A DNA stretch of 64,000 bases from a virus (lineage: Duplodnaviria; Caudoviricetes), in IMG/VR virus record IMGVR_UViG_2706796489_000001, positions 17,542 through 81,541 of that record. One strand, 5' to 3'. The notes below the pieces were generated by a model. It was not told the origin of the DNA, ran no database searches, and saw nothing but the letters and a program-made list of their open reading frames with translations. Below are positions 11,901 through 64,000 of the stretch, piece by piece. The position numbers were made by a program, and so were the translations under genes. How positions within the stretch are numbered: the first letter of the stretch is position 1; every line of letters starts with the position of its first letter.

Positions 11901-11921
11901 ACCTGGGCTTCTCCGGTTCTC

Positions 11922-11933: not shown

Positions 11934-11960
11934 TCACCACGGTAAACGGAAGATTCAACC

Positions 11961-16033: not shown

Positions 16034-16062
16034 CCAGAAAACCTTTGGGTAGATGCAACCAT

Positions 16063-16074
16063 CCGGTTAGAATC
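16063..16074 (+). promoter_or_regulatory. Putative late-promoter element CCGGTTAGAATC upstream of lysis cassette
   Basis: TAGAAT is -10-like; similar to the 11922 element. Confidence 0.3.
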
Positions 16075-16098
16075 ATCCCACCTTCACCGGAGTTCACC

Positions 16099-18005: not shown

Positions 18006-18014
18006 GGACTGAAG

Positions 18015-18635: not shown

Positions 18636-18639
18636 CCCC

Positions 18640-41404: not shown

Positions 41405-42109
41405 TTACCTCTTGGGCGGCAACGGACCCAGCGGGTCATCGTCGCGGCGCATGTGACGTTTGAGCACCATCATGCCCAGGTTCTCCAGGGGCATCTGGTG
41501 CAACAGGTCGAAGTCTTCGACCGTCAACGTGGTTTGGATCTTTTCAACCGGCTCGTTGATGACGAGCAGCGACGAGCCGGTCAAGATGATGTTTCGCCGG
41601 CTGTTGTAGCTCAGGGTCTTCAGCTCTTCCAGCAGGCCGGAGTGCTTGTAGGTGAGCTGGGTCATGACCAGCGGTTGTACGTTCGTGCGGCCCAGCTCGG
41701 TCACGAGCTGCGAGAGCGACGGCGCGGTCCACACGGGGCGCACGATCGGCTCCAGCGGGCTGGACAAACGGGACAGGGTGTACAGAGGCCGCAGAAGCTC
41801 GTTGGCGGCGTCTTCGATGAAGTACACCCCTGGGGTATAGGCAGGCTTCGGAAGCGGCAGCATGGCCCGCACAAGGGGGTCAGCGGCCAGGCGTCGGAAG
41901 GCCTCCCAGTGACGCGGGTCCGGCACCTGGGCGCTCACCGGGAAGAGGTGGTTGCAGGGGAACCGCGTCACGGGCCGGACGTTGAAAGGGGAGGGCGCTT
42001 TCATCGACAGAAAGTTGGTCGCCCCGCGCCCCTGGTGCAGGTAGGCCACGCCTTCCTCGCTCCAGTGGACGCCGTAGTGGCTGACATCAGTGATGATTTT
42101 TTCGGTCAT
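41405..42109 (-). CDS. Hypothetical protein
   Basis: Operon coupling. Confidence 0.65.
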   Translation of the reverse strand: MTEKIITDVSHYGVHWSEEGVAYLHQGRGATNFLSMKAPSPFNVRPVTRFPCNHLFPVSAQVPDPRHWEAFRRLAADPLVRAMLPLPKPAYTPGVYFIEDAANELLRPLYTLSRLSSPLEPIVRPVWTAPSLSQLVTELGRTNVQPLVMTQLTYKHSGLLEELKTLSYNSRRNIILTGSSLLVINEPVEKIQTTLTVEDFDLLHQMPLENLGMMVLKRHMRRDDDPLGPLPPKR

Positions 42110-42507
42110 AGTGCTACCAGCTCGGCAATACCCTTGTTGGTGTAGGTTGAGATGTCCAACAGATCGTTCAAGGTCACGTTGAACACCCCCTTCTCGATGG
42201 CCGCGAGCTTATGCGTCGTCCAGCCGATCTTCAGGGCTGCTTCTTGGCGGGTTTGTCGGATCTCCATTGAACGGGAGAAGGCCAGCCGCTCCCCCAGTTT
42301 TTCATGAGTTCGACTGAGGGTTTTATTCATGTTGTCTGAGGAAGCGGTGGATGAACGGTGGGTCGCCTTGACCCCCTTAGCCGCGAGGATCTTCCTGACC
42401 AATGCTTCTGAGATCTGGAAAGACCTGGCGACTGCGGGGCCAGATTGACCATCAAGGTAGCTTTGAACTACCTGTTGGTCGCGCTCATCCTTCGTCATGC
42501 CGATCAA
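42106..42507 (-). CDS. HTH transcriptional regulator (N-terminal HTH plus XRE-like domain)
   Basis: SGPAVARSFQISEALVRKIL and TRQEAALKIGWTTHKLAAIEKG. Confidence 0.75.
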   Translation of the reverse strand: MIGMTKDERDQQVVQSYLDGQSGPAVARSFQISEALVRKILAAKGVKATHRSSTASSDNMNKTLSRTHEKLGERLAFSRSMEIRQTRQEAALKIGWTTHKLAAIEKGVFNVTLNDLLDISTYTNKGIAELVAL

Positions 42508-50088: not shown

Positions 50089-50122
50089 GATGTGTCCTTC
50101 GTCTGTGTGCTGTGTGAGGGGA

Positions 50123-51429: not shown

Positions 51430-51453
51430 GGTGTACCTCGTCTGTGTGCTGAA

Positions 51454-51468
51454 GGTTCGTTACGAACC
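51454..51468. repeat. Palindrome copy 1, GGTTCGT-T-ACGAACC
   Basis: 24 nt upstream of ATG 51429. Confidence 0.9.
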
Positions 51469-51473
51469 GTTGG

Positions 51474-51749
51474 TTACTCAGCGGCGGTTTCCAGCGTGGT
51501 GTTGGCCTGGTCCAGCGCGCTCATGACTTCATCCAGCGCGTCAACGGCTTCTCGCATGGAGTCCACTGCGGCCTGCGCCTTCTGACCCTTCTCACCGTCC
51601 TGGATCGACTCGGGCATGTTGTCGAAAGCGTCTTGCTCATCGGCAAGTGGCCCGCTTTCCAGCTCGTCCTTGAGTTCTTCGGCGGAAGCCTTGAGCGCTT
51701 CGATGCGCTCACGCAGGGCTTCCAGCTGCTTGCGGCGGTCCTTGTTCAT
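51474..51749 (-). CDS. Acidic coiled-coil hypothetical phage protein
   Basis: MNKDRRKQL...EQDAFDNMPESIQDGEKG. Confidence 0.75.
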   Translation of the reverse strand: MNKDRRKQLEALRERIEALKASAEELKDELESGPLADEQDAFDNMPESIQDGEKGQKAQAAVDSMREAVDALDEVMSALDQANTTLETAAE

Positions 51750-51988
51750 GCTGCCACCGTGCCATCGTTCGAGTTGTGGTTGAACTGCACGCGGCGACCG
51801 CTGCCGGTCTTGACCGAGTGGACCTCGTTGAACGCGGTGCAAGCGTTGTCCCAGGCGGTCTTGGCCTTGTTCAGCGCTTCAGCGGCGCGGCGCAGGGATT
51901 CCTCGGCGTCGTTGTGCGCGATGATGGCCTGCTGGTAGTTGGCCAGCGCTTGCGTCTGGTTGGACAAGATCTGTTCTTTGTTGGTCAT
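51746..51988 (-). CDS. Hypothetical protein
   Basis: Leader motif and SD. Confidence 0.7.
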   Translation of the reverse strand: MTNKEQILSNQTQALANYQQAIIAHNDAEESLRRAAEALNKAKTAWDNACTAFNEVHSVKTGSGRRVQFNHNSNDGTVAA

Positions 51989-52023
51989 GATGGTCTTTCC
52001 GTTTGTGTGCTGCGGTTGGGGGA

Positions 52024-52200
52024 TTAGCCGATGACGATGTACACCGCGTCGGACTTGTTGAACAGCTTGCTACCCGTGCCTTCGTACAGATAGACATGGC
52101 GACCGTGCGTATCGCTTTCTTTCTGGAAGGTGTGGTCGTCGTGGAGGGGACGAAAGATCGTTCCTTCCTTCAGGTCTTCGAACGTGGTCAGCTCGCTCAT
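52024..52200 (-). CDS. Hypothetical protein
   Basis: MSELTTFEDL start; coupled. Confidence 0.6.
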   Translation of the reverse strand: MSELTTFEDLKEGTIFRPLHDDHTFQKESDTHGRHVYLYEGTGSKLFNKSDAVYIVIG

Positions 52201-52475
52201 GCTTTCTCCAGTTGCTCGCGGTGTTCGGTGAAGGTGGCCGACCAGCGCATGCCGTGGTCGGTGACGATGCCGAGGATCACGCAACCAGTTTCGGCAGCGA
52301 TCTCGTTCAGCACTTCCTGGTCCATGGGCCAGCTCGGGGTGTTGAGGTTCACTTTCTCAGCGACCGCATCAGCGATGATCTCGTTGATGCGGTCGATGAG
52401 CGTAGGCGCCCGGTGCTTGATGGCTTCCTTCAGGTTCACGAAGGAGACGTAGGGGCCGAGGTCGGGTGGCAACAT
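52197..52475 (-). CDS. Hypothetical protein
   Basis: MLPPDLG start. Confidence 0.55.
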   Translation of the reverse strand: MLPPDLGPYVSFVNLKEAIKHRAPTLIDRINEIIADAVAEKVNLNTPSWPMDQEVLNEIAAETGCVILGIVTDHGMRWSATFTEHREQLEKA

Positions 52476-52479
52476 GGCG

Positions 52480-52662
52480 TCAGGCGTCCAGCAGCTGGTT
52501 GGCCATGGCGCAATCGACCCAGGCCGCGCCGTCGGTGTTGAACGTCTGCGCGCTGCGCTCTTCGGGAAAGAGCACCTTGAACCAGAAGTAGCCTTGCGCC
52601 GAATCGGCCACCGCGTAGCCGGCCGCTTTGGCCAGCGATTTCGCATTGAGTTTTCCGCTCAT
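52480..52662 (-). CDS. Hypothetical protein
   Basis: SD AAGGA. Confidence 0.6.
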   Translation of the reverse strand: MSGKLNAKSLAKAAGYAVADSAQGYFWFKVLFPEERSAQTFNTDGAAWVDCAMANQLLDA

Positions 52663-52674
52663 GATGATGAGTCC

Positions 52675-52938
52675 TTAGTTGTTGACGACGAGCGTCAGAT
52701 ACTTGACCGTGGCTTTCGTCAGCGAAAGCTGGTTGGGGGAAGAAGACTTGCGAGCAGCATCAAAGCCCATTCGATAGGCGTCCTCCAGTTGCTGGCAGAT
52801 GCCAGACAGGTTGTGGTTCTGGCCGAAGGGGTTGCCCAGCTGCGCATCGTTCCAACCACGTTGGAAAGACAGGCAGCGGGCCGCTTCGGTGTTCGCGGGG
52901 TGCTCATCAGCCCCCGAGACGGCCGGCGCGGCGTCCAT
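52675..52938 (-). CDS. Hypothetical protein
   Basis: Operon spacing. Confidence 0.55.
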   Translation of the reverse strand: MDAAPAVSGADEHPANTEAARCLSFQRGWNDAQLGNPFGQNHNLSGICQQLEDAYRMGFDAARKSSSPNQLSLTKATVKYLTLVVNN

Positions 52939-52941
52939 GGC

Positions 52942-53646
52942 CTAGTGGAGCGTGCCGTTGCCGGCCACTCGGTTCGGCTCGATCACGGGCGGTGCGGCGT
53001 CGTCGGCCGCACGGGTGGCTTCCAGGCCCATGCCTTCGCGGATGGCCTCGTAGAGTTCCGTACCCGGCGCATACTGGTCCAGGCGGTCCAGGTCGGGCGA
53101 TCCGTCCGCCTTGAGGGGGATGATGGCCATGGCCTCGGAAACGCCGTCAGCGCCGTCCTGCGAGGCCGTGTTGGCCACGGCTCGTTCCATCGCCTGGCGC
53201 AGCACGTCACCGTCGGTGGCGAGGGCGGTGTAGCGCCGCATGCGCGCCTCCTGGTGGAGCATGTGGGACATCTCCATCAGCTGGTTCAGGTAGCTGAAGG
53301 TCAGCTCGGGCGTCGTGAGCTGCACGGGCATCCCGCTCAACGACACGGGCGTTCTGCCCAGGCTCAACAGCAGCGAGTCCGACACGTTCTGGATGGTGTC
53401 GGGGTTCTCGGCCAGGGTCTTGGTGGCCAGATCCACCACCATGTCCTTCAGGCCGGGGATGAGGTTCGGGTCGTCCTGCTGGTGTTCGGCCATCTTGGCC
53501 ATGACGAAATCGCGGATGACGTGTTGCAGCGCTTCCTTCTTCTGGCCGTAGTAGAAGCGCGCCGTGTTGTTGGTGGCGTTGTAGATCAGCGCCGCGCAGC
53601 AGGTCATGATGACTTGAACCGGGTGGGTCTTCAGGTTGGTTTCCAT
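52942..53646 (-). CDS. Hypothetical protein
   Basis: METNLKT start directly after palindrome. Confidence 0.7.
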   Translation of the reverse strand: METNLKTHPVQVIMTCCAALIYNATNNTARFYYGQKKEALQHVIRDFVMAKMAEHQQDDPNLIPGLKDMVVDLATKTLAENPDTIQNVSDSLLLSLGRTPVSLSGMPVQLTTPELTFSYLNQLMEMSHMLHQEARMRRYTALATDGDVLRQAMERAVANTASQDGADGVSEAMAIIPLKADGSPDLDRLDQYAPGTELYEAIREGMGLEATRAADDAAPPVIEPNRVAGNGTLH

Positions 53647-53659
53647 CTTTCTCTCTTTC

Positions 53660-53674
53660 GGTTCGTTACGAACC
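53660..53674. repeat. Palindrome copy 2
   Basis: Contains the TAA stop of 53666..54013; 13 nt upstream of ATG 53646. Confidence 0.9.
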
Positions 53675-54013
53675 AGTGCGGGGCTGAAGCCCCATGGTTT
53701 GGTATAGCTCGGCCAGGAGTTCAGGCGAGAGATCCAGCGATTCAATATCGCGGGAATACTTGTGACCTTCGCAGTTCACGTAGGCCTTCAACCGGACAGC
53801 CGTCCACTCGTAGCGGTGGCCCATGTCGATATCGAGGCCTTGTTCGAAGACGGCCTCGATCACCGGGGTCACGCGGTTGGTCGCTTCGAACTCTTTCTGC
53901 GCCACGTTGGACATGACGTAGTTGAAAGCCCCCACCCCGAAGACGACACGCTTTCCTTCGATCTCCCAGTGGCCACCGTTCCAACCATCGACGTGCTTCA
54001 GTTGCGTACTCAT
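53666..54013 (-). CDS. Hypothetical protein
   Basis: MSTQLKHVDG start; SD GGAGG. Confidence 0.65.
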   Translation of the reverse strand: MSTQLKHVDGWNGGHWEIEGKRVVFGVGAFNYVMSNVAQKEFEATNRVTPVIEAVFEQGLDIDMGHRYEWTAVRLKAYVNCEGHKYSRDIESLDLSPELLAELYQTMGLQPRTGS

Positions 54014-54015
54014 CT

Positions 54016-54990
54016 TTAGTCCTCCACGCTCCACTTGAACCCGCAAGCGTCCATGTCGGCCTTGAACTCCGCCATCAAGCCAGGCAGACGGGCGTTCAGC
54101 AGCGCCTCCAGCTCGGCACGCGGAAGGCACAGCTGTTCGTCGGTGACTTCGGGCCAGACGGCGCTGCTGCGCGCTGCCTTCAGGTCGCGTTCCTTGCCTT
54201 CCGAGAAGAGCGTCGGAATCTGTTCGAAGCGGATGTAGCCGCTGCGGTGATTGCGCAGGTTGGCCACATGGTCGTTCAGCGCCTTCGCCCAGGCCTCGGC
54301 CGTCATCGGATCGCTGAACGGGCAGGTGGCCCACTTGGCTGCATAGCCGACCAGGGTGTAGTTGTCGCTGTACTTGTGCGTGCCGGGTTCGTTGTTACGC
54401 TCATGCCCGATGGCCTCGACCTCGAACGGAGACCAGGCGGGGTTGGTCGTGGCCGTAGTCACCAGGAACTCGATGCGCGCCTTCATCCAGGCCAGGAACC
54501 TGCCGCTCTTGATCGGCACCGGGAACGGGCTATTGCCCATGTAGGCAACATCATCCCAGGCCCACGGCTCGCCCTTGAGCTTGCCGTTGTGGTCGCGGTT
54601 GCTGGCATGGTAGAGCACGTTGCCCGGGTAATGCATCGGACCATCGGTGCTCGTGAGGTGCCACTTGATCAGATGCGCGATCTCGGGGTAGTGCTTGGTG
54701 ATGTCCTCGTGGATGCTGCCGCAGGTTTCGACGCGATCCCCGTAGATCTTGATGTTCTGCGTGGGGTTGTAGATCGTGCCGGTGATGGCGAAGTCGTTGT
54801 GGCCGTTCTTGCAGTTGTCATCGAAGCGCACCGACACGTCGATGGTCTTCAAGACACCATCCTCGCGGAACCTGCGGCGGGCCGTGAACTTCTGGATATT
54901 GAACGTGCGGATACCGCGCCGGCCGATGGCCTTGTGTTCCACGGTTTCCAGTTCGCCTTCGATGCCCAAGAGGGTGTGCTTAACTTTCAT
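54016..54990 (-). CDS. Hypothetical phage protein
   Basis: RFDDNCKNGHNDFAITG...WHL.STDGPMHY; leader motif and SD. Confidence 0.8.
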   Translation of the reverse strand: MKVKHTLLGIEGELETVEHKAIGRRGIRTFNIQKFTARRRFREDGVLKTIDVSVRFDDNCKNGHNDFAITGTIYNPTQNIKIYGDRVETCGSIHEDITKHYPEIAHLIKWHLTSTDGPMHYPGNVLYHASNRDHNGKLKGEPWAWDDVAYMGNSPFPVPIKSGRFLAWMKARIEFLVTTATTNPAWSPFEVEAIGHERNNEPGTHKYSDNYTLVGYAAKWATCPFSDPMTAEAWAKALNDHVANLRNHRSGYIRFEQIPTLFSEGKERDLKAARSSAVWPEVTDEQLCLPRAELEALLNARLPGLMAEFKADMDACGFKWSVED

Positions 54991-55025
54991 GATGCTTCCT
55001 TCGTCTGTGTGCTGTGGATGATGGC

Positions 55026-55604
55026 TTACGCCTCGACTTCAACGTCCTGCGGCAAGTCGGTGAAGTAAGCGGGCGGCAGGCCGAACGCCTGGTGAAACCG
55101 TGCGCTGTCACGCACAAAGTTGTTCGGCAGCAGCGACAGATGGTGCTCGGGAACCGAGGTCTCGTTGGAGTTCGAAACAACCTGATAGGTCACTTCTTCC
55201 ACCTTCTCGCCGTCGCCGTTGTAGGTGCTGACAACCTGCACGCTCTGGATGAGGCACAGGACCGCTTGACGGTACACCAGCGTTCCTGCGGCGTACTTTC
55301 CGGGCGGCGCGTTCTCCAGGTATTCCTGGATCTCACGATCATGGTAGGTGCATTCCTGCACCAAGGCCTCTGGCAGCTGGATCACCGACTTGAGGTGGAC
55401 CCTGCCGCTTTGGCCGGCGATGAGGCGCAGCATCGGCAGGTTGTACAGGCTGCTGAAGGAGCTGTAACCCGACGACAGCGAGTGGATGCGGCGCGCCATG
55501 TTGATGTCGGACGTGGGTTCGCCGGAGTTGTCATCCGCCTTCCAGAGGATGATGCCGTTGGCGGCGATGCCGTCGGCCATGATGAGCGGGGAGTTGTTAG
55601 CCAT
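55026..55604 (-). CDS. Hypothetical protein
   Basis: MANNSPL start; SD AAGGAG. Confidence 0.65.
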   Translation of the reverse strand: MANNSPLIMADGIAANGIILWKADDNSGEPTSDINMARRIHSLSSGYSSFSSLYNLPMLRLIAGQSGRVHLKSVIQLPEALVQECTYHDREIQEYLENAPPGKYAAGTLVYRQAVLCLIQSVQVVSTYNGDGEKVEEVTYQVVSNSNETSVPEHHLSLLPNNFVRDSARFHQAFGLPPAYFTDLPQDVEVEA

Positions 55605-55773
55605 TGCCGTGCTCCTTGATGAGATCTTCGATCTCGGTGTTGTCGAAGCGAGAAAGTTCGTCACGAACTTTTTGTTCCTCGCCGGGGATGTTGGATCGCT
55701 GCGCCAGCGACAGACGAGTGAGGATGCCGGCACGAACTGCGATCACGGGAGCGAGATCCTTGAACGTGCTCAT
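55597..55773 (-). CDS. Small hypothetical protein (58 aa, not in ORF track)
   Basis: MSTFKDLAPVIAVRAGIL...; fills the gap. Confidence 0.55.
   Translation of the reverse strand: MSTFKDLAPVIAVRAGILTRLSLAQRSNIPGEEQKVRDELSRFDNTEIEDLIKEHGNG
55653..55671. repeat. Palindrome copy 3, AAAGTTCGT-C-ACGAACTTT (central C, inside a CDS)
   Basis: Core 55656-55668. Confidence 0.85.
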
Positions 55774-55777
55774 GGCG

Positions 55778-56041
55778 TCAGATCCCCGATACGTCTTCGC
55801 TGGTGAGACCCACCGCGATGACCGGGTGCTGGGTGCCCATGATCTGAACGATCAGGCCGTGACCCTTCTTGAGCAGTTCGATCTCGTCGTCGCTCAGGCG
55901 CCAGACCGACATCATCCACTTCTGGCCATCTTGCTCCAGGTCGATGATCGGCAGATCGCCGCATTCGCCCTGCGTTTCGGTGTCCCATTCCTTGGGCGCT
56001 TTCAGAACGCGGGTGGCGTTTGAGGGGTGCAAAATGTCCAT
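55778..56041 (-). CDS. Hypothetical protein
   Basis: CGDLPI...MMSVWRLS.DE; SD AAGGA. Confidence 0.7.
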   Translation of the reverse strand: MDILHPSNATRVLKAPKEWDTETQGECGDLPIIDLEQDGQKWMMSVWRLSDDEIELLKKGHGLIVQIMGTQHPVIAVGLTSEDVSGI

Positions 56042-56044
56042 TCT

Positions 56045-56230
56045 TTATCCTTCGGTCTTGGGTTGTTGTTCGGCCCGCGCTTGACGCACGCCGCCGCACT
56101 TCTCGGGCTGCTTGCATTCGCACAGGTAGACGGAGGTGCCGCCGACGTAGCGGGCGGTCGGACACTTTTCCATCGCGGTGACGGTGAAGAGGGGATATTC
56201 CTTGTTCCCCCACTTGGCTTTGCTGGTCAT
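56045..56230 (-). CDS. Small Cys-rich hypothetical protein
   Basis: ATGA coupling. Confidence 0.55.
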   Translation of the reverse strand: MTSKAKWGNKEYPLFTVTAMEKCPTARYVGGTSVYLCECKQPEKCGGVRQARAEQQPKTEG

Positions 56231-56424
56231 TTGACGCTCGCCTGTTTGAAGGTTTCGTAGGCCTGGATGATGGATTCAGTCCAGTTGATGATCCCGTTCC
56301 AGTGGAGCCAGTGTTCCATCAGCTCGCGGGTCGAAGAAATGCGGATCTCTTCGTCGGACAAGCCGCGCTCACGCAGAACGTCGATGATGTGGGGCGGAAG
56401 ATCTTCCACCTTGGTGAGGACCAT
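56227..56424 (-). CDS. Hypothetical protein
   Basis: Leader motif and SD AAGGAG. Confidence 0.7.
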   Translation of the reverse strand: MVLTKVEDLPPHIIDVLRERGLSDEEIRISSTRELMEHWLHWNGIINWTESIIQAYETFKQASVK

Positions 56425-56515
56425 GAGGTCTCCTTGGTTTGTGTGCTGTGGGCGGATAATAGCCTGAAGGATGGATCTTGCCTAGTCCCCCTTCTCGGGC
56501 CAGCAGATCGCGCAA

Positions 56516-56635
56516 CTATTGGAGAACCCTGTAGTAGCGCCAGTACGGGCCGGCGTGACGACGGAACAGCTTCGGATTGGTGAATGCGCCGCAGCTGTAG
56601 AACTCTTCTTTCGTGATGCGGCGTATCGTGGCCAT
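56516..56635 (-). CDS. Small basic protein (39 aa, not in ORF track)
   Basis: MATIRRITKEEFYSCGAFTNPKLFRRHAGPYWRYYRVLQ*; starts 2 nt after upstream stop. Confidence 0.5.
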   Translation of the reverse strand: MATIRRITKEEFYSCGAFTNPKLFRRHAGPYWRYYRVLQ

Positions 56636-56637
56636 GG

Positions 56638-56994
56638 TCAGAAGTTGTAGGTGATGGCTTGGTGGACCACGGCGCGCCGCTTGGAGACGAAGCGCACCGA
56701 GGCGCTGTAGCTGGCGCAGCCGCAGCAGTCATATTCGTGGGCGCAGCCCCAGGCCGAGAACGTGTGCATCAACGCCTCCTGCCACTTCTTGCGATCCGCG
56801 CCACGCGGGACGATCACGCTGAAGAGGCGGACAGGGCCATGCGACGGCTCGTCGTAGTAGGAATCTGGCCGGTGGATGTTGCGGCCGCGCAGCACCTTGG
56901 CCACGCCCAGGTACTCGTGCTCGTCCAGGTGCTTGAACGTGCCGACGTACCTGTGAGTCTTGCGCAGTTCAACAGATTGGATCGAAGCCATCAT
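56638..56994 (-). CDS. Hypothetical phage protein with Cys cluster
   Basis: GCAHEYDCCGC motif. Confidence 0.75.
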   Translation of the reverse strand: MMASIQSVELRKTHRYVGTFKHLDEHEYLGVAKVLRGRNIHRPDSYYDEPSHGPVRLFSVIVPRGADRKKWQEALMHTFSAWGCAHEYDCCGCASYSASVRFVSKRRAVVHQAITYNF

Positions 56995-57464
56995 GCCTCC
57001 GGGTGTTTGATCGTGGCGACGTGGTACTCATCGCCGCGAGCGTGGTTGTCGGCCCAGTCGGTCGCGTCTTCCACCGACTCGAAAGGCCCGACCATGTGGA
57101 TGCCGTCGATCACGTTGCCGAACAACAGCACATGGCGGTCGTCTTTCTCGGTCGAGAGGACGGCTTGGTTGATGTGCTCGATGACGCGGCGCGCCCAGCC
57201 ATTGAAGACGAGTTCATCATCGTCATCGTAGAGCGACATGACCAGGCGCTCGTAGGTCGTGCAGATCAGCAGGCCACGCGGCGAGCTGGCTTCGAAGTAG
57301 CCCGCCAAGGCGCCGGTCCCCACGTCACGAACCGTGATGGTCTCGACGCGGTAGCCATGCAGATGAGTGGGCTTGCCCCACTTGAAGACCTCGATGCACC
57401 AGCCGTCGGATAAGCCGGACTGCACCAGGTTCAACGCAGTGTCTTGAGCAACAGGTAAACGCAT
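56991..57464 (-). CDS. Hypothetical protein
   Basis: Palindrome and SD upstream. Confidence 0.7.
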   Translation of the reverse strand: MRLPVAQDTALNLVQSGLSDGWCIEVFKWGKPTHLHGYRVETITVRDVGTGALAGYFEASSPRGLLICTTYERLVMSLYDDDDELVFNGWARRVIEHINQAVLSTEKDDRHVLLFGNVIDGIHMVGPFESVEDATDWADNHARGDEYHVATIKHPEA

Positions 57465-57478
57465 GATTCATCCTTGAA

Positions 57479-57493
57479 GGTTCGTTACGAACC
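57479..57493. repeat. Palindrome copy 4
   Basis: 14 nt upstream of ATG 57464. Confidence 0.9.
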
Positions 57494-57499
57494 TACTAG

Positions 57500-57655
57500 T
57501 TATCCGATCTCGCGCTGACGAGCGCAAGCCTCTTCTTCGGTGTCGAACTCTTCAATCGACCCGTCTTGGTGCTGGACCAACCAGGGTTTGGAGAAGAGCG
57601 CCGAGTGGGTCTCATCGAGAGACGCACGTTCGATTACGTCAGTCTTGTAATTCAT
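57500..57655 (-). CDS. Small acidic protein (51 aa, not in ORF track)
   Basis: MNYKTDVIERAS...EEFDTEEEACARQREIG*; SD AAGG. Confidence 0.6.
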   Translation of the reverse strand: MNYKTDVIERASLDETHSALFSKPWLVQHQDGSIEEFDTEEEACARQREIG

Positions 57656-57658
57656 GAT

Positions 57659-58114
57659 TCACCCTTCCTTCGGTTTACGGTCTTTCAGGAACCGCTCTTG
57701 GTGGACACCCGACTCGACGGCCAGGTCGATGAGATCCTGCCACCGCAGATGCCAGATGCGGCCGGACCCGAGGTGCTTGACCATCGGACTTCCGCCGACG
57801 CTGTGCAGCAGTTCGAATTCGCCCAGCTCGGGGTGCGCCGCCGATCCGAGAGCCACCGTCATGACCAGCTTCTCTTTCTCGATCATCTCCCCGTGGCTGG
57901 AGTTGTAGCGATGGGCGATGCGCTCACCGATGCGCTTCATCGCTTCGGGCGAGCGAATGATGCCATCGGGGTACTTGTCGCGTTGTCGGCTTGCATCGAC
58001 CAGCTTGGCGGGCAAGTGGCCGATATGGCGACCGTGAAAGTCCTGGAGCTGGCCACCAGATTCGCCGTAGCTGAAGATGATGTGATTGGGGACGCGATGG
58101 GGATTATGGCTCAT
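57659..58114 (-). CDS. Hypothetical protein
   Basis: MSHNPHR start. Confidence 0.6.
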   Translation of the reverse strand: MSHNPHRVPNHIIFSYGESGGQLQDFHGRHIGHLPAKLVDASRQRDKYPDGIIRSPEAMKRIGERIAHRYNSSHGEMIEKEKLVMTVALGSAAHPELGEFELLHSVGGSPMVKHLGSGRIWHLRWQDLIDLAVESGVHQERFLKDRKPKEG

Positions 58115-58118
58115 GTCA

Positions 58119-58310
58119 CTAGTCCTTGATGGAGACGCAGGCACCCACACGATTGCCGTTCGAATCGCACAGGGTGATCTTGTCGGAGAAGTCGTTGCCC
58201 GCTCTTTCGATCCGGTCAGCGAGGTCTCGCAAGATCCACGCCAGCTCGGTTGCGGGTTCGTCAAAGGCGCTGCCGCCGCCTTTGATGGTGATGGTCGCGG
58301 AGTCGAACAT
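58119..58310 (-). CDS. Hypothetical phage protein
   Basis: SAF.....EL..ILR.LA...D.NGNRVG motif. Confidence 0.7.
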   Translation of the reverse strand: MFDSATITIKGGGSAFDEPATELAWILRDLADRIERAGNDFSDKITLCDSNGNRVGACVSIKD

Positions 58311-58312
58311 GA

Positions 58313-58726
58313 CTACAACCCCGCATGTTGACCACGGGTTGCGCCGCAGTGCAGGCAGATGTTTTCGGCCGTGCCAGGGGCTTGTTCGTACCCGTTGCAC
58401 TTGCCCTGGATCGTGCCGGCCAGCGGTTTGACCAGGTGGCGCAGCGCCGTGTCGATGTGGTCGTCGTCCATGTAGACGTACATATCGACAACGAGGACGC
58501 GGCGGGCGGGGACGAAAATGCCCAGCGTCGTACCTTCGAGGACGAACTTGGGGCTGTTCATGTCGCCCCACATGCAGTCCCAGCGAAAGCGCATGTTGAT
58601 GTCTTTCGTCTTGTCGATGTTCTTGATCGACGGATCGCGCTGGCGGTACAGCTCGCGGTTGGCTTCGATGTTGGTGTGCTTGAGCAGCGTGGCCAGGCGT
58701 GCCAGGTGTTCAGGTTTGATCTTCAT
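58313..58726 (-). CDS. Hypothetical protein with C-terminal Zn-finger-like CxxC
   Basis: ATGA coupling; SD AAGG. Confidence 0.7.
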   Translation of the reverse strand: MKIKPEHLARLATLLKHTNIEANRELYRQRDPSIKNIDKTKDINMRFRWDCMWGDMNSPKFVLEGTTLGIFVPARRVLVVDMYVYMDDDHIDTALRHLVKPLAGTIQGKCNGYEQAPGTAENICLHCGATRGQHAGL

Positions 58727-58929
58727 GAGAAGGTTCCCTTTATCAACTTTGGATCTTCATGCCGCTGGGTGATATCGCAGTGGATGGCTTCACCCAAAGC
58801 GAAGTGTCGGTAGTGGTGACGGCCACATAGCGGGCATTCAAGGATCACATCACCAGAGAAGCGCTCAGGCAACGTGACTCGAAAATACACGTCGCAGCCT
58901 TTGCAGTAATGCAAAGTCGGGAGATTCAT
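58723..58929 (-). CDS. Small zinc-ribbon protein
   Basis: CKGC...CPLCGRHH. Confidence 0.65.
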   Translation of the reverse strand: MNLPTLHYCKGCDVYFRVTLPERFSGDVILECPLCGRHHYRHFALGEAIHCDITQRHEDPKLIKGTFS

Positions 58930-59171
58930 TTCACCCTTTCGACGCAGACGAGATACCGCACGGGTTGCCCCACGGCGAACGCGGGGATGGCGGTGTAGAG
59001 GGAGGTGGCGAACTCGCGGCCCTGCCATTGAGCAGGGCGGCGTGATGCCGGTGGGTTGAGCGACCGCATCATGACGGGGTAGCCGCTGACGGTCGTTTCG
59101 AGATAGGCACGTTGCCCGACTTCCAGGGTTGACAGAACGTGCAGTCGGCTACCTTTTCGGATGCCGGTCAT
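58926..59171 (-). CDS. Hypothetical protein
   Basis: Coupled. Confidence 0.6.
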   Translation of the reverse strand: MTGIRKGSRLHVLSTLEVGQRAYLETTVSGYPVMMRSLNPPASRRPAQWQGREFATSLYTAIPAFAVGQPVRYLVCVERVK

Positions 59172-59174
59172 GGT

Positions 59175-59384
59175 TCAGCGGTAGTAGCGCAAGCCATCAT
59201 CGGCCGCGACAAACCACTTCTTCATGATGCGAGTGCCGGGGTGGCAGCATTGCTCAACCGGGAAGTCCCGGTAGTGAGTCGCGCCGTATCCACGCTTGAC
59301 CTCGCTGGCGGTCGGCGGGCGGTGATACGTGAGAATCTTCACGTCACCGCGCACTGGCAACCCGTGCTTCAGGTTCTTTGCCAT
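59175..59384 (-). CDS. Hypothetical phage protein
   Basis: HRPPT..E...GYGATHYRDF...DDGLRYY. Confidence 0.75.
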   Translation of the reverse strand: MAKNLKHGLPVRGDVKILTYHRPPTASEVKRGYGATHYRDFPVEQCCHPGTRIMKKWFVAADDGLRYYR

Positions 59385-59393
59385 GGTTGATCC

Positions 59394-59690
59394 TTAGAAG
59401 TTCGTTACGAACCAGTAGCTCACGCCGTCGAACAGCTTGACCAGCATCAGCCACATGAAAGACGGCACGGGCATATCGCGCCACATACCCACAGCCATCA
59501 TGGGCAACACGATGATGGCCACCAGGCATCCGATTGCCACATCGGGCTTTGGTTCACCATCGTCGGGCTTGCGGAAGAAGACCAGGCGCACGAGGATCGT
59601 GGTGAGCATCAGCCACATCACCATGAGGACGATGGGAATGAGGATCGGGTTAAGCCCGATGAAAACGAGGATGAGGAAGACGATCCACAT
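59394..59690 (-). CDS. Membrane hypothetical protein
   Basis: Several hydrophobic segments; C-terminal WFVTNF encoded by the palindrome. Confidence 0.6.
   Translation of the reverse strand: MWIVFLILVFIGLNPILIPIVLMVMWLMLTTILVRLVFFRKPDDGEPKPDVAIGCLVAIIVLPMMAVGMWRDMPVPSFMWLMLVKLFDGVSYWFVTNF
59400..59412. repeat. Palindrome copy 5
   Basis: 15 nt upstream of ATG 59384. Confidence 0.9.
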
Positions 59691-59692
59691 GG

Positions 59693-60022
59693 CTATCGGC
59701 TCCCCTCGGACAGCAGCGAGCGCAGCATGTCCTCGTAGGCCTCGACTTCGCTCTGATAGCCGTCGTCCGGGTCGCTGTCAACCAGCGAGTAGGCCAGCAG
59801 CAGACGCTCGGCGGCGGCGATGACGTGCAGCCCGCCCTGGTCGATGGCCATGATCGACCAGCCGGACCGGAACTTACCGTGCTCGTTCTTGATGCCGCTG
59901 ATTTCCGAGATACGGTCCCCGAAACGATCCGTCGTCCAGTAGAGGACGGACACCTTCTCATCCTCAGAAGGCTTGATGACCTCGATGAGGAACTTGAGCA
60001 GCATCAGCTTGTACTTTTCCAT
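59693..60022 (-). CDS. Hypothetical protein
   Basis: MEKYKL start after palindrome and SD. Confidence 0.65.
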   Translation of the reverse strand: MEKYKLMLLKFLIEVIKPSEDEKVSVLYWTTDRFGDRISEISGIKNEHGKFRSGWSIMAIDQGGLHVIAAAERLLLAYSLVDSDPDDGYQSEVEAYEDMLRSLLSEGSR

Positions 60023-60036
60023 GATTGATCCTTGAA

Positions 60037-60051
60037 GGTTCGTTACGAACC
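60037..60051. repeat. Palindrome copy 6
   Basis: Contains the TAA stop of 60043..60345; 14 nt upstream of ATG 60022. Confidence 0.9.
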
Positions 60052-60345
60052 ACGCTGGATATCGTCGTAGATATCCCACGCGGCGAGCCAGACCACGTTG
60101 CGGTGGACTTCGAAGTCTTCCAGCACGGCCACGTCGTCCATGCCGCAGCTCACGAGCCACTGGCGCATCACAGCGATATCCATGCGGTTCAGCTGGAGCT
60201 TCACGTCCTTGTAGGACGTGACGATGGCCACGGCGGTCTCGTTGGGGCCAGGGCGAGCGATCAGACGCATCTGATCTTCGGTCAAGTCCAGCTTGAGTTG
60301 ACCGCACGACGATTGCCATTGGTGGAGGACTTCGGTTTCCATCAC
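60043..60345 (-). CDS. Hypothetical phage protein
   Basis: EL.D..VHRNVVWLAAWDI-type motif. Confidence 0.7.
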   Translation of the reverse strand: MMETEVLHQWQSSCGQLKLDLTEDQMRLIARPGPNETAVAIVTSYKDVKLQLNRMDIAVMRQWLVSCGMDDVAVLEDFEVHRNVVWLAAWDIYDDIQRGS

Positions 60346-60533
60346 ACACGCTCCTTGGTCGAGTCACGAATGATCTTGCCATCCTGGGTCAGGATGACGA
60401 CGGCGCCAACGAACCCGTCAGCATCCCGGCGCACCTTGCGCACGAGATCGTTGTAGACGTTCTTGGCTTGCTTGCCGTTGTGGCCGTCGAATTCTTTCTT
60501 GCCGTTGATGGCAACTGTGAACGATTGGCGCAT
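60342..60533 (-). CDS. Hypothetical protein
   Basis: SD AAGGAG. Confidence 0.65.
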   Translation of the reverse strand: MRQSFTVAINGKKEFDGHNGKQAKNVYNDLVRKVRRDADGFVGAVVILTQDGKIIRDSTKERV

Positions 60534-60542
60534 GGTATCTCC

Positions 60543-61046
60543 TTACAGGACTTGAGCGCGCAGCCTCTGGCCAAATTGGGCCAGGAGGAACTTGTCGAAG
60601 GTGGCGAACTTATCAGGATTGCCGTCAGCGAAGAACGGTTCGATGAGGATTTCGTTGGCGAAGCTGGGCTTGACGACCACTACCAGCTCGATCTTGCCAG
60701 GGTCTTCCTCGATGTCAGTGTTGTAGGCGACCAGCTTGAACTTGAGCTTGTCATCGTCCGAGTAGCGCAGATCGAACGAGACCGACAGACCGAGGTGATG
60801 AGTCGGCTGACCATTGTCCATGTTTGGGAATTCGAAGACTTCCTCCAACTTGACCAGTTCGATCTTGGCCATCTTGACCGTGTTGGTGTAGTCGCGGAGT
60901 TGATCGCCCAAGGTTTCGAGTTCAGCGTCCACCATCATGGCATGAGCGTGGAGGATGTTCTCCATGACATGGATCGACTGTTCGAGAGCCTTGCGCCCCT
61001 CGTGATAAACCCGCATCCACTTGGCAAACGATTGAGCGTAGTTCAT
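60543..61046 (-). CDS. Hypothetical protein
   Basis: Palindrome upstream. Confidence 0.7.
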   Translation of the reverse strand: MNYAQSFAKWMRVYHEGRKALEQSIHVMENILHAHAMMVDAELETLGDQLRDYTNTVKMAKIELVKLEEVFEFPNMDNGQPTHHLGLSVSFDLRYSDDDKLKFKLVAYNTDIEEDPGKIELVVVVKPSFANEILIEPFFADGNPDKFATFDKFLLAQFGQRLRAQVL

Positions 61047-61058
61047 GTTCTGCCCTTT

Positions 61059-61073
61059 GGTTCGTTACGAACC
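61059..61073. repeat. Palindrome copy 7
   Basis: 12 nt upstream of ATG 61046. Confidence 0.9.
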
Positions 61074-61075
61074 AT

Positions 61076-61552
61076 TCAGTAGGTGACGTTGATGCGCAAC
61101 GCCTGGTTGAAGATTTCCGCGATGTAGTCACGAACGTCGTTTCGATTTCGACCGGAAACCGTGATGCTGACGCCGTGGCCGAGACTGGGACGAACCGTGA
61201 TCGTGTGTTCAGTCCATCCGTCGTAGCAACCATGCGTGTCCATGTGGTGGAAAGCTGTGTGAAAGACCAGCTTCTCGGGCGTGGATTCGGTCAACTGCAT
61301 CGACGTGCCGTAATCGAAGCCGCCACCACTGGGCAAGTGCTGGCTCACCAGGTCATGCATGCGCTTGCTGTGAACGTCGAGCCAATGCTGCTTGACCTCG
61401 GGGTTGGAATCGGTGGCCATGCGGTTCACGTAAGCGGCCATGCGCATCGCCAGCACGGCGAATATCGGGTAGACGTTGGTGCTCGGCCTGGGGTCAATGG
61501 GACCGGAGCGGGACTTGACCATGTGCTTGGCGGCTTGAACGAGCTGGTTCAT
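61076..61552 (-). CDS. Hypothetical phage protein
   Basis: LPSGGGFD.G...FHHMD..G.YDGWTEH...V.PSL motif. Confidence 0.8.
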   Translation of the reverse strand: MNQLVQAAKHMVKSRSGPIDPRPSTNVYPIFAVLAMRMAAYVNRMATDSNPEVKQHWLDVHSKRMHDLVSQHLPSGGGFDYGTSMQLTESTPEKLVFHTAFHHMDTHGCYDGWTEHTITVRPSLGHGVSITVSGRNRNDVRDYIAEIFNQALRINVTY

Positions 61553-61624
61553 GGGTTGAGTTCCAAAGAGGTGTACGGGGCTTTCGCTGGGTTTCTTGCG
61601 CTGCCGGGGCCGGGGTAGCCGGGA

Positions 61625-61637
61625 GTTCGTTACGAAC
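61625..61637. repeat. Palindrome copy 8
   Basis: Intergenic, about 72 nt upstream of ATG 61552. Confidence 0.9.
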
Positions 61638-61786
61638 CATCAACGGATAGGGCTGGGGAGCACGAGGACGAGCTAGGAGCGAGGGGAAGGGGTTGTGGCT
61701 ACCTGGGCTAGGGTTGGCTGGAAAAATCGCGCTGCGGGCTTGTATCCGCATCAGCCATTCGGCCTAGACCAGGGCGTGGCAGGCCT

Positions 61787-61888
61787 CTAGCGGCCCGAGA
61801 AATAGCCGATGACCAGGTAGGCGAGGATTCCGAAGCAGACACTGCCGAAGAAGATCGCTTCGGCGTCTTTTTTAAGGTTTTGGAGCAT
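61787..61888 (-). CDS. Small single-TM peptide (33 aa, not in ORF track)
   Basis: MLQNLKKDAEAIFFGSVCFGILAYLVIGYFSGR*. Confidence 0.45.
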   Translation of the reverse strand: MLQNLKKDAEAIFFGSVCFGILAYLVIGYFSGR

Positions 61889-61991
61889 AGGGTTTACCCT
61901 CGAAATGGGTCAAAAAGTGGTCAAAAAGTGAGCAGAATCTGCGGCGCAGAGCGGGAGCAGGAGACGGGGGATTTATCATATACACCCTACC

Positions 61992-62004
61992 TAAGTCCTT
62001 GATT
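61992..62004 (-). promoter_or_regulatory. IHF consensus site
   Basis: AATCAAGGACTTA matches WATCAANNNNTTR exactly; AT-rich context. Confidence 0.5.
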
Positions 62005-62010
62005 TGCAAG

Positions 62011-62034
62011 GAGCGGGAGCGGGAGCGGGAGCGG
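62011..62034 (+). repeat. Tandem repeat (GAGCGG)x4
   Basis: Read directly from sequence. Confidence 0.9.
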
Positions 62035-62068
62035 GAAATGGAGCAGATTCGCAGGCCTGAAGATGGCA

Positions 62069-62443
62069 TTTTGGGTGGAGACAAATGCTCATTTCTTTTT
62101 TATAGGTATATTTATTTACCCTATAAATGGTGGCCCTTAAACATCAGAAAAAACGAATTATCTCCACCCAAAAGGAGATCGAGAAAATTGCTCTGTCCCT
62201 CAATGGTCTAGCCTGGCGGAAAATCCTTTGTGGTCAATAGGTTAGACCCTGTGTATATGATAAATCCCCAAGACCCAAGATCGGATCTTGCGAAAACAGA
62301 GGTCGGGGACAGTGCGAACCGAAAAATTATCCGATAAATGGAAGAAACTCATCGGTGTACTTTTCGGCCCGCTGTCTCCACCCAAAATTTCAGGCGCGGG
62401 CGGTAGCCGGCCAAAAGGATGAGACGGGAATCCCCACCCAAAG
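62069..62443. repeat. Iteron-like TCTCCACCCAAAA repeats
   Basis: Inverted copy 62069-62081, direct copies 62161-62173 and 62375-62387, variant TCCCCACCCAAAG 62431-62443. Confidence 0.8.
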
Positions 62444-62595
62444 GGGGACGGACTCCGTAGAGGGCGCGGGCGTGGTAGCGGTGTTTAACCTTTTCGTGAC
62501 GCCCTGCCCACTGTTGTATTTGCGCAACAACTTTTGAAGTTACTTGACTTTCCCTCAAAAGTGCGCTACCACGCCAACGCCCAATTTAACTCCAA

Positions 62596-62910
62596 TCATT
62601 TGTCCCTTATATTCCAGGCGAGCCGCAGCTTGTCCGCCAACGCGACCAGGGAATCGGCCACTTCAACGCGCTTGCGGGTCGATTTGCGGCGAACGCGAAC
62701 CCGCTCAACCGCCTGGACCTCATCGAGCCAATCGAAATCCCCATCTTTCTCGGCAGCGCGAATCTCTTCCCGCATCCGATTCCGTTCCAACTTCGCGTTG
62801 CGGTTTTCATTGGCCGCACGGCGAAACAGATCCTGCTTCCATTGCAGTTGGGCGCTTACGCCGCTGCTAATGACCTTGGAATAGCTACCGATGAGCGGAT
62901 CTTGCGACAT
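62596..62910 (-). CDS. Hypothetical charged helical protein
   Basis: Palindrome and GGAAGA upstream. Confidence 0.65.
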   Translation of the reverse strand: MSQDPLIGSYSKVISSGVSAQLQWKQDLFRRAANENRNAKLERNRMREEIRAAEKDGDFDWLDEVQAVERVRVRRKSTRKRVEVADSLVALADKLRLAWNIRDK

Positions 62911-62929
62911 AATTTTTTCTTCCGACTTG

Positions 62930-62946
62930 AAGTTCGTAACGAACTT
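62930..62946. repeat. Palindrome copy 9, AAGTTCGT-A-ACGAACTT
   Basis: About 20 nt upstream of ATG 62910. Confidence 0.9.
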
Positions 62947-63000
62947 TTGACCTACCGTTTACCGAAGTTGAGTTGCCCAATTCAAACTTGAATTGAGGCC

Positions 63001-63050
63001 GTATAGGCGCGACTTCGCTACCACGCCAGCTTCACGGGCCGCGCCTATAC
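63001..63050. repeat. 11-bp inverted repeat GTATAGGCGCG/CGCGCCTATAC with 28-nt spacer
   Basis: Read directly; spacer contains the CGCTACCACGCC motif. Confidence 0.75.
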
Positions 63051-63060
63051 GAACTTGTCA

Positions 63061-63085
63061 AAAAGCCCCTACCCGAGGGTAGGGG
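63061..63085 (-). terminator. Intrinsic terminator
   Basis: CCCCTACCC-TC-GGGTAGGGG-CTTTTT on - strand. Confidence 0.8.
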
Positions 63086-63123
63086 AAAAGCCAAGCCGCC
63101 AGGGTCGCGGCTTGACTGGGGCG

Positions 63124-63825
63124 TTATGCCGTCACGGCCGCATCTTCAGCATGGACCGAGTAACCCATGTCCACGATGTGGGCCATCAGGGACTTGATGA
63201 ATACGGCGCGGTCATCGTCGCTCATGGCTTGCATCTGCGCGGCGATGGTTGCCGCGTAGGCCTCGGGGCCGGTGGCCGATGCGAGCGGGGCCACGTCTTC
63301 AACCACTTCGGGCGCTTGATCGGGGCCGGCCGTGGGCGCGGGCGGGGTAGCGGGCTTTTGCGCCTTTTCGCGCTTCGCATTGCCACCCGCAAAGCCGAAT
63401 TTGGTCCAAAGCGATTCAATGTCAGTCACGCCGACATGCCCCGTAAGCCACGCGCATACGGCCTTGATGGCGTCGGCCTGCGACAGGTCATGCAGGGCCG
63501 TCACATTCAGGCCGCGCTCCGCCGCGATGCACGCGATAGCTACCCCCTTTTCGGCGTACTTCTTGAACCGGGCGAAGAACTGGCCGCGCGCCTCATCGCG
63601 GGTCGCGTCGTCCATGGTCTCCCAGGCCTTGCCGTGCGTGGCCATGGCCGCATCCAGTTGCAGCGCCTTGCGCAGGTCGGCGGCGTAGCCGCGTTCATTG
63701 GCCTTGCCATCCAGCACGGCATGGGCGATGACGGCGGCGTAACCGCCCAGGTCGGCGCGCATGGCCTTGACGATAGCGGCGCGAGTGACCGAGATAGAAG
63801 TGGTCGGGGTAGCGGTCGTTTGCAT
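63124..63825 (-). CDS. Ala-rich hypothetical early protein
   Basis: SD AAAGGA; palindrome upstream. Confidence 0.75.
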   Translation of the reverse strand: MQTTATPTTSISVTRAAIVKAMRADLGGYAAVIAHAVLDGKANERGYAADLRKALQLDAAMATHGKAWETMDDATRDEARGQFFARFKKYAEKGVAIACIAAERGLNVTALHDLSQADAIKAVCAWLTGHVGVTDIESLWTKFGFAGGNAKREKAQKPATPPAPTAGPDQAPEVVEDVAPLASATGPEAYAATIAAQMQAMSDDDRAVFIKSLMAHIVDMGYSVHAEDAAVTA

Positions 63826-63847
63826 GGTGAAGTCCTTTAAGAGGTTT

Positions 63848-63862
63848 GGTTCGTAACGAACC
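63848..63862. repeat. Palindrome copy 10, GGTTCGT-A-ACGAACC
   Basis: 22 nt upstream of ATG 63825. Confidence 0.9.
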
Positions 63863-64000
63863 TTTGTAAACCGTAGGGGCGAAGTTGCCCCGGCCCTCCT
63901 GGGCCTGGCTACCAGGGAGACATTCCCCGATTGCTTAGGTATAAGTGTACCTAGCTTTTATGGGACGTGCAACCACATAAACCCCAGGATGTCAACCCCA

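Follow-up and report, generated by a model that had tools for sequence, protein, structure and literature searches.

Lineage-specific palindromes in the early arm of JWF-type phages

The early arm and its palindromes

The DNA analysed here (the window, 64,000 nucleotides) corresponds to bases 17542-81541 of an 81,541-bp phage genome, most probably that of Achromobacter phage JWF (here JWF), whose published length and number of open reading frames it equals (PMC9959647), and the element in question is a short palindrome, GTTCGTNACGAAC (GTTCGT-N-ACGAAC), that recurs in the early genes at its right end. The genome belongs to a siphovirus, with tape-measure and GpJ-like tail proteins, and carries a T5-like replication set comprising a family A DNA polymerase, an SbcCD-like nuclease, a ligase and a helicase. 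From about 20 kb to the right end all genes lie on the minus strand, as deduced from AT skew and a codon-usage gene model, and the genome finishes with the right copy of an exact 1,466-bp direct terminal repeat (62535..64000; genome 80076-81541), which holds palindrome copies 9 and 10. In the middle and late regions, ordinary sigma-70-type promoters appear after terminators about every 5-10 kb; because promoters are arranged in this manner, the palindromes lie inside operons.

Ten exact matches to the palindrome are present in the window, all of them within the last 12.4 kb. An earlier note on this DNA had listed ten copies (six of its coordinates were off by one base) and had put the chance expectation near zero, and 100 shuffles indeed produced no exact match. 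Its observation that the first 51 kb are devoid of copies was also confirmed: exact matches are absent from them, and tolerating up to two mismatches adds only four weak matches, versus 2.7 expected. Since this relaxed scan stays near chance elsewhere, the palindrome is confined to the right-hand arm. The whole genome contains 12 copies, because those at 62932 and 63849 sit in the terminal repeat and recur at the left end. The arms are invariant while the central base changes, as the note had described (on the plus strand T in seven copies, C in one and A in two). On the minus strand, which is the sense strand, this corresponds to GTTCGT-A-ACGAAC seven times, a G centre once and a T centre in both terminal-repeat copies. 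The palindrome extends in most cases to 15 bp (R-GTTCGT-N-ACGAAC-Y), the pairing at the seventh position being no more frequent than expected from independence.

Regarding placement, eight of the ten copies end 13-25 nt 5' of a start codon on the minus strand, in agreement with the 12-25 nt proposed earlier, with the Shine-Dalgarno sequence in between, 3-10 nt downstream of the palindrome; the other two are 51 and 72 nt away. As a baseline, a random position falls within 35 nt of a start in 25% of cases. The sequence TTCAAGGA, frequent after the palindrome, is the general ribosome-binding context of the phage and is found also at genes without a palindrome.

Numbered from left to right, all copies are read on the minus strand. 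Copy 1 (51455..51467, sense GTTCGTAACGAAC) is located 6 nt past the upstream stop and 25 nt 5' of the ATG of gene 50980-51429, and is then followed by a CAGCACACAGAC leader. Two copies contain, as their central TAA, the stop codon of the gene that precedes them: copy 2 (53661..53673) closes gene 53666-54013 and lies 14 nt 5' of the ATG of gene 52942-53646, and copy 6 (60038..60050) closes gene 60043-60342 and lies 15 nt 5' of the ATG of gene 59693-60022. Copy 3 (55656..55668), with G as its sense centre, is contained within a 58-aa open reading frame (ORF, 55597-55773), ~50 nt 5' of the ATG of gene 55026-55604. Copy 4 (57480..57492) occupies a 35-nt spacer, 15 nt 5' of the ATG of gene 56991-57464, and copy 7 (61060..61072) a 29-nt spacer, 13 nt 5' of the ATG of gene 60543-61046. 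Copy 5 (59400..59412) is read through by the upstream ORF 59394-59690 (ending ..FVTNF and stop) and is 15 nt 5' of the ATG of gene 59175-59384, while copy 8 (61625..61637) is found in a 234-nt non-coding stretch, 72 nt 5' of the ATG of gene 61076-61552. Both terminal-repeat copies have T as their sense centre. Copy 9 (62932..62944) lies 21 nt 5' of the ATG of gene 62596-62910, with a strong terminator (63085-63066) upstream of it, and copy 10 (63849..63861) lies 23 nt 5' of the ATG of the first gene (63124-63825), where it ends a leader of ~95 nt.

This leader (63862-63960, minus strand) runs from a candidate promoter (TTGnnn-17-TACACT) to the first palindrome. Its sequence hardly differs between three genomes with only ~75% identity in their coding DNA, and it contains the sequence CCCTGG-N2/3-CCAGGG together with a hairpin (GGGGC-AACTTC-GCCCC).

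Palindromes in the same arm of related genomes

Scanning of the genome and its relatives, a check that had been proposed in the earlier note, gave the result that is new here: in this arm, every lineage carries an odd palindrome peculiar to it. The JWF motif itself is shared with two close relatives. Achromobacter phage 2-1, ~75-80% identical to JWF where aligned, has 9 copies in its last 12 kb plus 2 in the left repeat. An IMG/VR genome of 80,420 bp (G001) carries 10, none of them outside the last 12.3 kb, and the rest of its sequence is free of one-mismatch matches. Although the three genomes are only ~75-80% identical, all 12 arm bases are invariant in their 29 copies. The centre base differs between orthologous palindromes (the phage 2-1 orthologue of copy 3, for example, has A). 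A palindrome situated ~250 nt into a gene is kept in both phage 2-1 and G001.

The comparison was extended to six lineages or families: the JWF group, Burkholderia prophages, two metagenomic genomes (G003 and G004) found via a small two-domain protein of JWF (42106-42498, see below), Xylophilus phage Lumi and Caulobacter phage Seuss. A contig of Burkholderia paludis MSh1 (G002, NZ_JPGL01000001) encodes a JWF-like DNA polymerase with 64% identity, and JWF proteins map on it to a complete, circularly permuted JWF-like genome of ~80 kb and 58-60% G+C (contig ~182,500-262,500). This genome is bordered by ~70% G+C DNA on both sides and has a tyrosine integrase at one end (L141:3131-4477), which identifies it as an integrated prophage; JWF-type phages therefore have temperate relatives. 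The early arm of this prophage lacks the JWF motif and carries GTTCAA-S-TTGAAC at about nine places, a palindrome present too in several IMG/VR proviruses. In G003, a genome-wide scan found GTTCAC-S-GTGAAC in 8 exact and 5 one-mismatch copies, 12 of the 13 in the last 11.6 kb and the sole match outside the arm being a one-mismatch one. The same kind of scan in G004 located (AA)GTGCGAC-N-GTCGCAC(TT) in 10 exact copies within 12 kb and nowhere else. Lumi and Seuss have palindromes unrelated to the GTTC type, namely TTACTAG-N-CTAGTAA three times in the terminal repeat, two of them in tandem, and TTTACCT-S-AGGTAAA five times, 5' of first genes after gaps, respectively. In Acinetobacter phage EAb13, a more distant relative, no repeated palindrome was detected in the first 42 kb.

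Several features are maintained across these changes of sequence. All six lineages have perfect palindromes of the 6-N-6 or 7-N-7 type, and their density is highest at the genome end, with a spacing of ~0.03-1 kb there that widens to 2-5 kb with distance from it. At the genome terminus of four of them (G003, G004, Lumi and B. paludis), copies are arranged in tandem, 27-38 bp apart. The outer part GTTC..GAAC is common to the palindromes of JWF, B. paludis and G003, in which the two inner positions are replaced symmetrically (GT/AC, AA/TT and AC/GT). A scan of IMG/VR with a 14-mer of the JWF motif returned single chance matches only, and the four JWF motifs of the B. paludis genome, always with G/C at the centre, fit common codons and are uninformative on a host regulon. 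When the terminal repeat of JWF was searched against B. paludis at the DNA level, no similarity came to light in that genome.

Some further observations were made on these genomes. The B. paludis prophage is permuted where the lysis genes and the minus-strand block converge; at the equivalent junction JWF has a GDSL-lipase-like gene. The right edge of the prophage holds a gene (contig 260,363-260,998) in which a Tae4 domain, that of a type VI secretion amidase effector, is strongly matched. One palindrome (L159:~1560-1591 and B. paludis contig ~214,150-214,176) has lost its left arm to the hexamer GCAAGT, which has expanded there to three tandem copies, and the orthologue in sister prophages is perfect. 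An unrelated phage of ~57 kb (IMGVR_UViG_3300037511_000152, 347-20205) has GAAGT-W-ACTTC nine times and a Toprim/DUF2399 'topoisomerase' gene in common with JWF. The core of its palindrome, GTAAC, is the same as that of JWF; one copy is directly 5' of an AAGGAG ribosome-binding site and another is 3 bp upstream of a perfect TTGACA-17-TATACT promoter.

Duplex-DNA sites, RNA hairpins and other readings

We consider that the palindromes are most likely double-stranded DNA sites for a phage-encoded, dimeric, sequence-specific protein, and assign to this prediction a probability of roughly 45%; an RNA element, a recombination joint and a promoter for an unrecognised polymerase follow in this order in our weighing, with a remainder left for other explanations. 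The first argument comes from the innermost pair. The consensus of each family stays complementary as far as the base that flanks the centre (T/A, A/T, C/G, C/G, G/C and T/A). In a hairpin this last pair would have to enclose a loop of 1 nt, which is impossible, and its symmetry in every family therefore favours the reading as duplex DNA. The second argument is provided by a hybrid site, GTGCAA-G-TTGAAC, kept at two terminal genes in three prophages with differing flanks, in which a G.A clash in mid-stem breaks the stem. Together with the conserved intragenic copies and the terminal arrays, these features favour duplex DNA read by a dimer.

The earlier note had interpreted the sites as operators for a dimeric phage regulator. 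Dyad symmetry, lineage-specificity and confinement to the early arm agree with that idea. Its classical form, the occlusion of promoters, was discarded: the sites neither overlap nor adjoin sigma-70 promoters and are for this reason not classical operators.

The best candidate for the reader of the palindromes is a protein of 130 aa (42106..42498, minus strand) with an N-terminal three-helix helix-turn-helix (HTH) and a C-terminal XRE-like HTH. It was one of the two HTH proteins pointed out in the earlier note and the only one of them to gain support. Clear homologues exist in G001, phage 2-1, Burkholderia prophages, G003, G004 and Lumi, and thus in every palindrome lineage tested except Seuss, whose gp077 (annotation: Cro/C1 regulator) matches weakly, though in a syntenic position; the 42 kb of EAb13 that were searched yielded no homologue, and the repeated palindrome is absent from them as well. 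The protein matches HTH_23 (residues 12-42), HTH_3 (residues 86-130) and PHROG 1303 'DNA binding protein', all of them weakly. Its structure model has a confident N-terminal three-helix bundle and weak fold matches to the XRE-type proteins 434 Cro, C.AhdI, CylR2 and SinR. Within the JWF motif group the two putative recognition helices do not vary, whereas from one motif group to another they do. The second of them reads WTTHK in genomes with the half-site GT(T/G)CG (JWF and G004) and WTVHK in those with GT(T/G)CA (B. paludis and G003), a correlation between helix and half-site that may be taken as a lead rather than as proof.

In the phage 2-1 record (61259-61655; L007:11259-11655), the homologue of this protein aligns in two frames and a longer ORF is annotated, which suggests a frameshift or a sequencing error near the C-terminus.

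Other candidate readers were set aside. The second HTH protein of the earlier note, encoded at 47796, shows a weak MarR-like match and has no homologue in the Burkholderia prophage. A reader of the ParB/KorB type is not encoded, as PF02195 has no match in the genome (controls were positive). The product of the first early gene (63124-63825), which is conserved in all JWF-type lineages, has a helical-bundle fold whose best Z of 5.3 is at noise level, with no informative match; the terminal genes of Lumi and Seuss have no sequence similarity to it.

A number of results weigh against a DNA site bound by such a regulator. No promoter context accompanies the palindromes: the best sigma-70 scores up to 70 nt upstream of the sites equal those of random positions (position-weight scan in four genomes), the aligned flanks have no conserved -35/-10 elements in an information profile, a sigma-70 consensus scan returned 3 matches versus 3.6 expected, and a search for extended -10 elements at the sites was negative. 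The two promoter-like sites of the arm (61913-61884 and 56484-56456) are 250-800 bp from the nearest palindrome. Isolated half-sites show no enrichment in the early arm. Regarding the candidate reader, the HTH evidence is weak (Pfam E 0.004-0.01, fold matches E 0.3-1.5), and the correlation between helix and half-site amounts to about two independent contrasts.

The remaining points on this side are those that could be explained by a hairpin in the early mRNA, with a stem of 6-7 bp and a UAA-type triloop 5' of the ribosome-binding site, that would repress translation, process or stabilise polycistronic transcripts, or cause attenuation through a phage RNA-binding protein or nuclease. Every copy is in a transcribed leader or between cistrons, and none has an adjoining promoter. 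In JWF they hug ribosome-binding sites at the eight genes described above, and in orthologous junctions their position follows the downstream start and not the upstream stop. The hairpin is predicted in 8 of the 10 native JWF contexts, at roughly -4.6 to -8 kcal/mol. A purine occupies the sense-strand centre at 42 of the 59 sites of six genomes, a strand asymmetry unexpected for a symmetric dimer, although the copies are not independent and leaders are purine-rich. Variation gathers at the innermost pair, which would be part of the loop, and centres of 0 or 2 nt, which a hairpin tolerates better than a dimer, are seen in terminal arrays of both G003 and G004. Finally, many copies in these two genomes have 3-5 T after the stem, in the manner of a weak intrinsic terminator.

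The RNA hairpin is thereby a serious rival, though several results speak against it. The 29 copies of the JWF group display neither G.U pairs nor compensatory changes. Symmetry is maintained at a position that cannot pair in RNA, the conserved hybrid sites wreck the stem, and the conserved intragenic copies are distant from any start. Besides, hairpin-binding proteins mostly depend on the centre of the loop, and here this is the one base that is free. Among 55 early and middle proteins scanned against Pfam and PHROG there was no RNA-binding protein, nuclease/RNase or sigma factor, the only regulators being weak HTH matches; no Rfam family matches the sites, and the fold z-scores of the contexts are unremarkable. 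The RNA-processing alternative of the earlier note is weakened by these results, but stays the second most probable reading. Two specific forms of it were rejected. RNase III sites of the T7 type demand ~20 bp of double-stranded RNA, often with an internal loop, for which stems of 6-7 bp are too short, and extended pairing is found in only 2-3 contexts. Intrinsic terminators, whose G+C-rich stem precedes a run of T, were called by a terminator scan at none of the ten JWF copies, in which the tail is YTTC. The proximity to ribosome-binding sites is largely explicable on other grounds, because in a tightly packed genome an invariant 13-bp element is tolerated mainly in short spacers; in the six genomes, 27 of the 59 sites are within 35 nt of a start, versus the 25% given by chance.

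It is improbable that the sites are primarily joints for the exchange of gene cassettes, with any regulation being secondary. According to this explanation, unrelated early genes would be swapped by recombination at short boundaries, like those of the promoter-early stem-loops (PeSLs), known from hyperplastic early regions as repeats that combine terminator and promoter (PMC4122927). When JWF is compared with phage 2-1 and G001, and these with each other, several homology breakpoints are indeed 0-3 nt from a site, and some matches between these genomes consist of the site and its ribosome-binding block and nothing more. Likewise, of the 10 genes that a JWF site immediately precedes, 4 are without homologues in phage 2-1 and G001, and rearrangements of gene order are seen around sites. 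However, the sites are at gene boundaries, which are in any case the places of mosaic breakpoints, the proportion of unique genes (4 of 10 versus about 6 of 26) is not significant, the identical core of 13-15 bp is too short for homologous recombination, and the promoter part is missing. Strict dyad symmetry, terminal arrays and lineage-wide replacement of the motif are left unexplained as well. As homology breakpoints between close relatives are often at sites, the palindromes may also serve, or be carried along, as cassette boundaries of the PeSL kind.

Least probable are promoters for an unrecognised phage RNA polymerase, either N4-type hairpins, the other alternative of the earlier note, or motifs like the pre-early promoters of Thermus phage P23-45: a short conserved motif that precedes early genes and clusters at the end of the genome that enters, the shape of a 5-7 bp stem with a 3-nt loop, the scarcity of sigma-70 promoters in the arm and the precedent of cryptic RNA polymerases in ~80 kb siphoviruses (PMC10770324) are outweighed by the lack of a T7-like polymerase (PF00940) in the genome, the restriction of the DxDGD motif in ORFs of at least 150 aa to a 218-aa ORF of the head-gene region, a tape-measure protein with only PhageMin_Tail and SLT (tail, lysozyme-like) domains, the use of ordinary sigma-70-type promoters after terminators in the middle and late regions, leaders of 7-10 nt at several genes if transcription started ~11 nt from the loop centre, and hybrid and intragenic sites that do not fit.

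Returning to the duplex-DNA sites, a single dimeric phage protein bound to about ten of them would act on the whole 12-kb early arm at once. During lytic growth this would probably serve to shut off early (host-takeover) expression after the first minutes, and in integrated relatives it would keep the arm silent. The lineage includes an integrase-bearing prophage and therefore needs a silencing system. Because the sites are inside operons and not on promoters, we infer that the protein would act as a roadblock to elongating polymerase, by looping or bridging of sites, or by coating transcribed DNA, instead of occluding promoters. Its specificity would have diverged together with the sites in each lineage. 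Taken to its full extent, this would constitute an undescribed type of early-arm control, in which a single dimeric regulator on about ten intra-operon sites silences 12 kb by roadblock or looping, and in which pairs of site and regulator (GTTCGT, GTTCAA, GTTCAC, GTGCGAC and so on) represent specificity classes, like heteroimmunity groups, common to virulent and integrated members of the clade; in this complete form the proposal is speculative and unlikely.

Apart from the palindromes, three other elements of the JWF genome deserve mention. A second early spacer, CAGCACACA(G/A)AC followed by an AGGA-type Shine-Dalgarno sequence, has 6 occurrences on the minus strand versus 0.02 expected by chance (50101-50112, 51440-51451, 52001-52012, 55003-55014, 56437-56448 and also 38438-38449). 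It is found in gaps of ~35 nt 5' of genes without a palindrome and once directly after a palindrome (51440), and it may be a CA-rich translation leader. The sequence GGCGTGGTAGCG has three exact copies, one of them inverted, in the non-coding DNA around the boundary of the terminal repeat (62469-62480 on the plus strand; 62564-62575 and 63016-63027 on the minus strand); it is kept in phage 2-1 and G001 and could be a packaging, origin or regulator site. Lastly, an ORF of 33 codons with a hydrophobic stretch (61787-61888, minus strand) lies inside an AT-rich non-coding region of 0.7 kb, after a sigma-70-like promoter (TTGACC-18-TATGCT, 61913-61884) that is the one good example in the arm.

Significance and comparison with known systems

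The control logic of the early (host-takeover) genes of most non-model phages is not known. The clade of ~80 kb siphoviruses and prophages from Achromobacter, Burkholderia and their relatives offers in this respect one compact and easily testable signal. The sequence of the palindrome shifts by lineage while number, placement and symmetry stay, which implies a co-evolving reader, and the lineage variants constitute natural specificity swaps for experiments. There is also a practical side, since JWF-type phages are considered for Achromobacter therapy, and it would be useful to establish whether their early arm has a silencing system tied to temperate relatives.

Literature searches by exact sequence and by keyword retrieved nothing on the JWF motif; several known systems resemble it in part. 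The KorB operators of plasmid RK2 (TTTAGC-S-GCTAAA, 12 copies) are bound by a ParB-family protein, and the C1 operators of phage P1 are dispersed, asymmetric and located on promoters. Like these regulons, the JWF sites number about a dozen copies over many operons, and they share the free centre and the location of some sites far from promoters. They depart from the KorB regulon in that no ParB-family protein is encoded, and from that of P1 C1 in being symmetric and off promoters. The hairpin promoters of the N4 virion RNA polymerase, three near the genome end, have a stem of 5-7 bp and a 3-nt loop. The JWF sites are similar in these dimensions and in their situation at the genome end, ahead of early genes, and dissimilar in that ten of them are spread over 12 kb and that no virion or other phage RNA polymerase was detected in the genome. 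In the early region of T7, RNase III sites are irregular hairpins of ~50 nt with differing sequences. JWF also has about ten potential intercistronic hairpins 5' of ribosome-binding sites, whereas its stems are of 6-7 bp and identical.

The two nearest parallels come from repeated elements of early or non-structural regions. The PeSL cassettes of T4-type phages are longer composites that include an early promoter (PMC2839356, PMC4122927). Like them, the JWF sites are repeated motifs able to form stem-loops, placed at gene junctions of variable early regions where homology breaks; unlike them, they lack the promoter part and their conserved core is limited to 13-15 bp. Cluster K mycobacteriophages contain start-associated sequences (SAS) and extended SAS (ESAS), with 11-19 well-conserved 13-bp repeats in the non-structural half of the genome, at the starts of a subset of genes (PMC3203893). 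The SAS is asymmetric, includes the Shine-Dalgarno sequence and is positioned a few bp 5' of the start codon, while the ESAS consists of inverted repeats whose consensus differs between subclusters, with imperfect arms of 17 bp that are 4-13 bp apart (PMC3203893). The JWF element resembles both in being a start-associated 13-bp repeat of the non-structural part with variants by sub-lineage, and differs from them in its perfect 6-N-6 (7-N-7) palindrome, its location upstream of the Shine-Dalgarno sequence and the intragenic position of some copies. Given that the SAS and ESAS are comparable start-associated repeats, solving one case, be it a DNA site or an RNA hairpin, would probably explain a widespread class.

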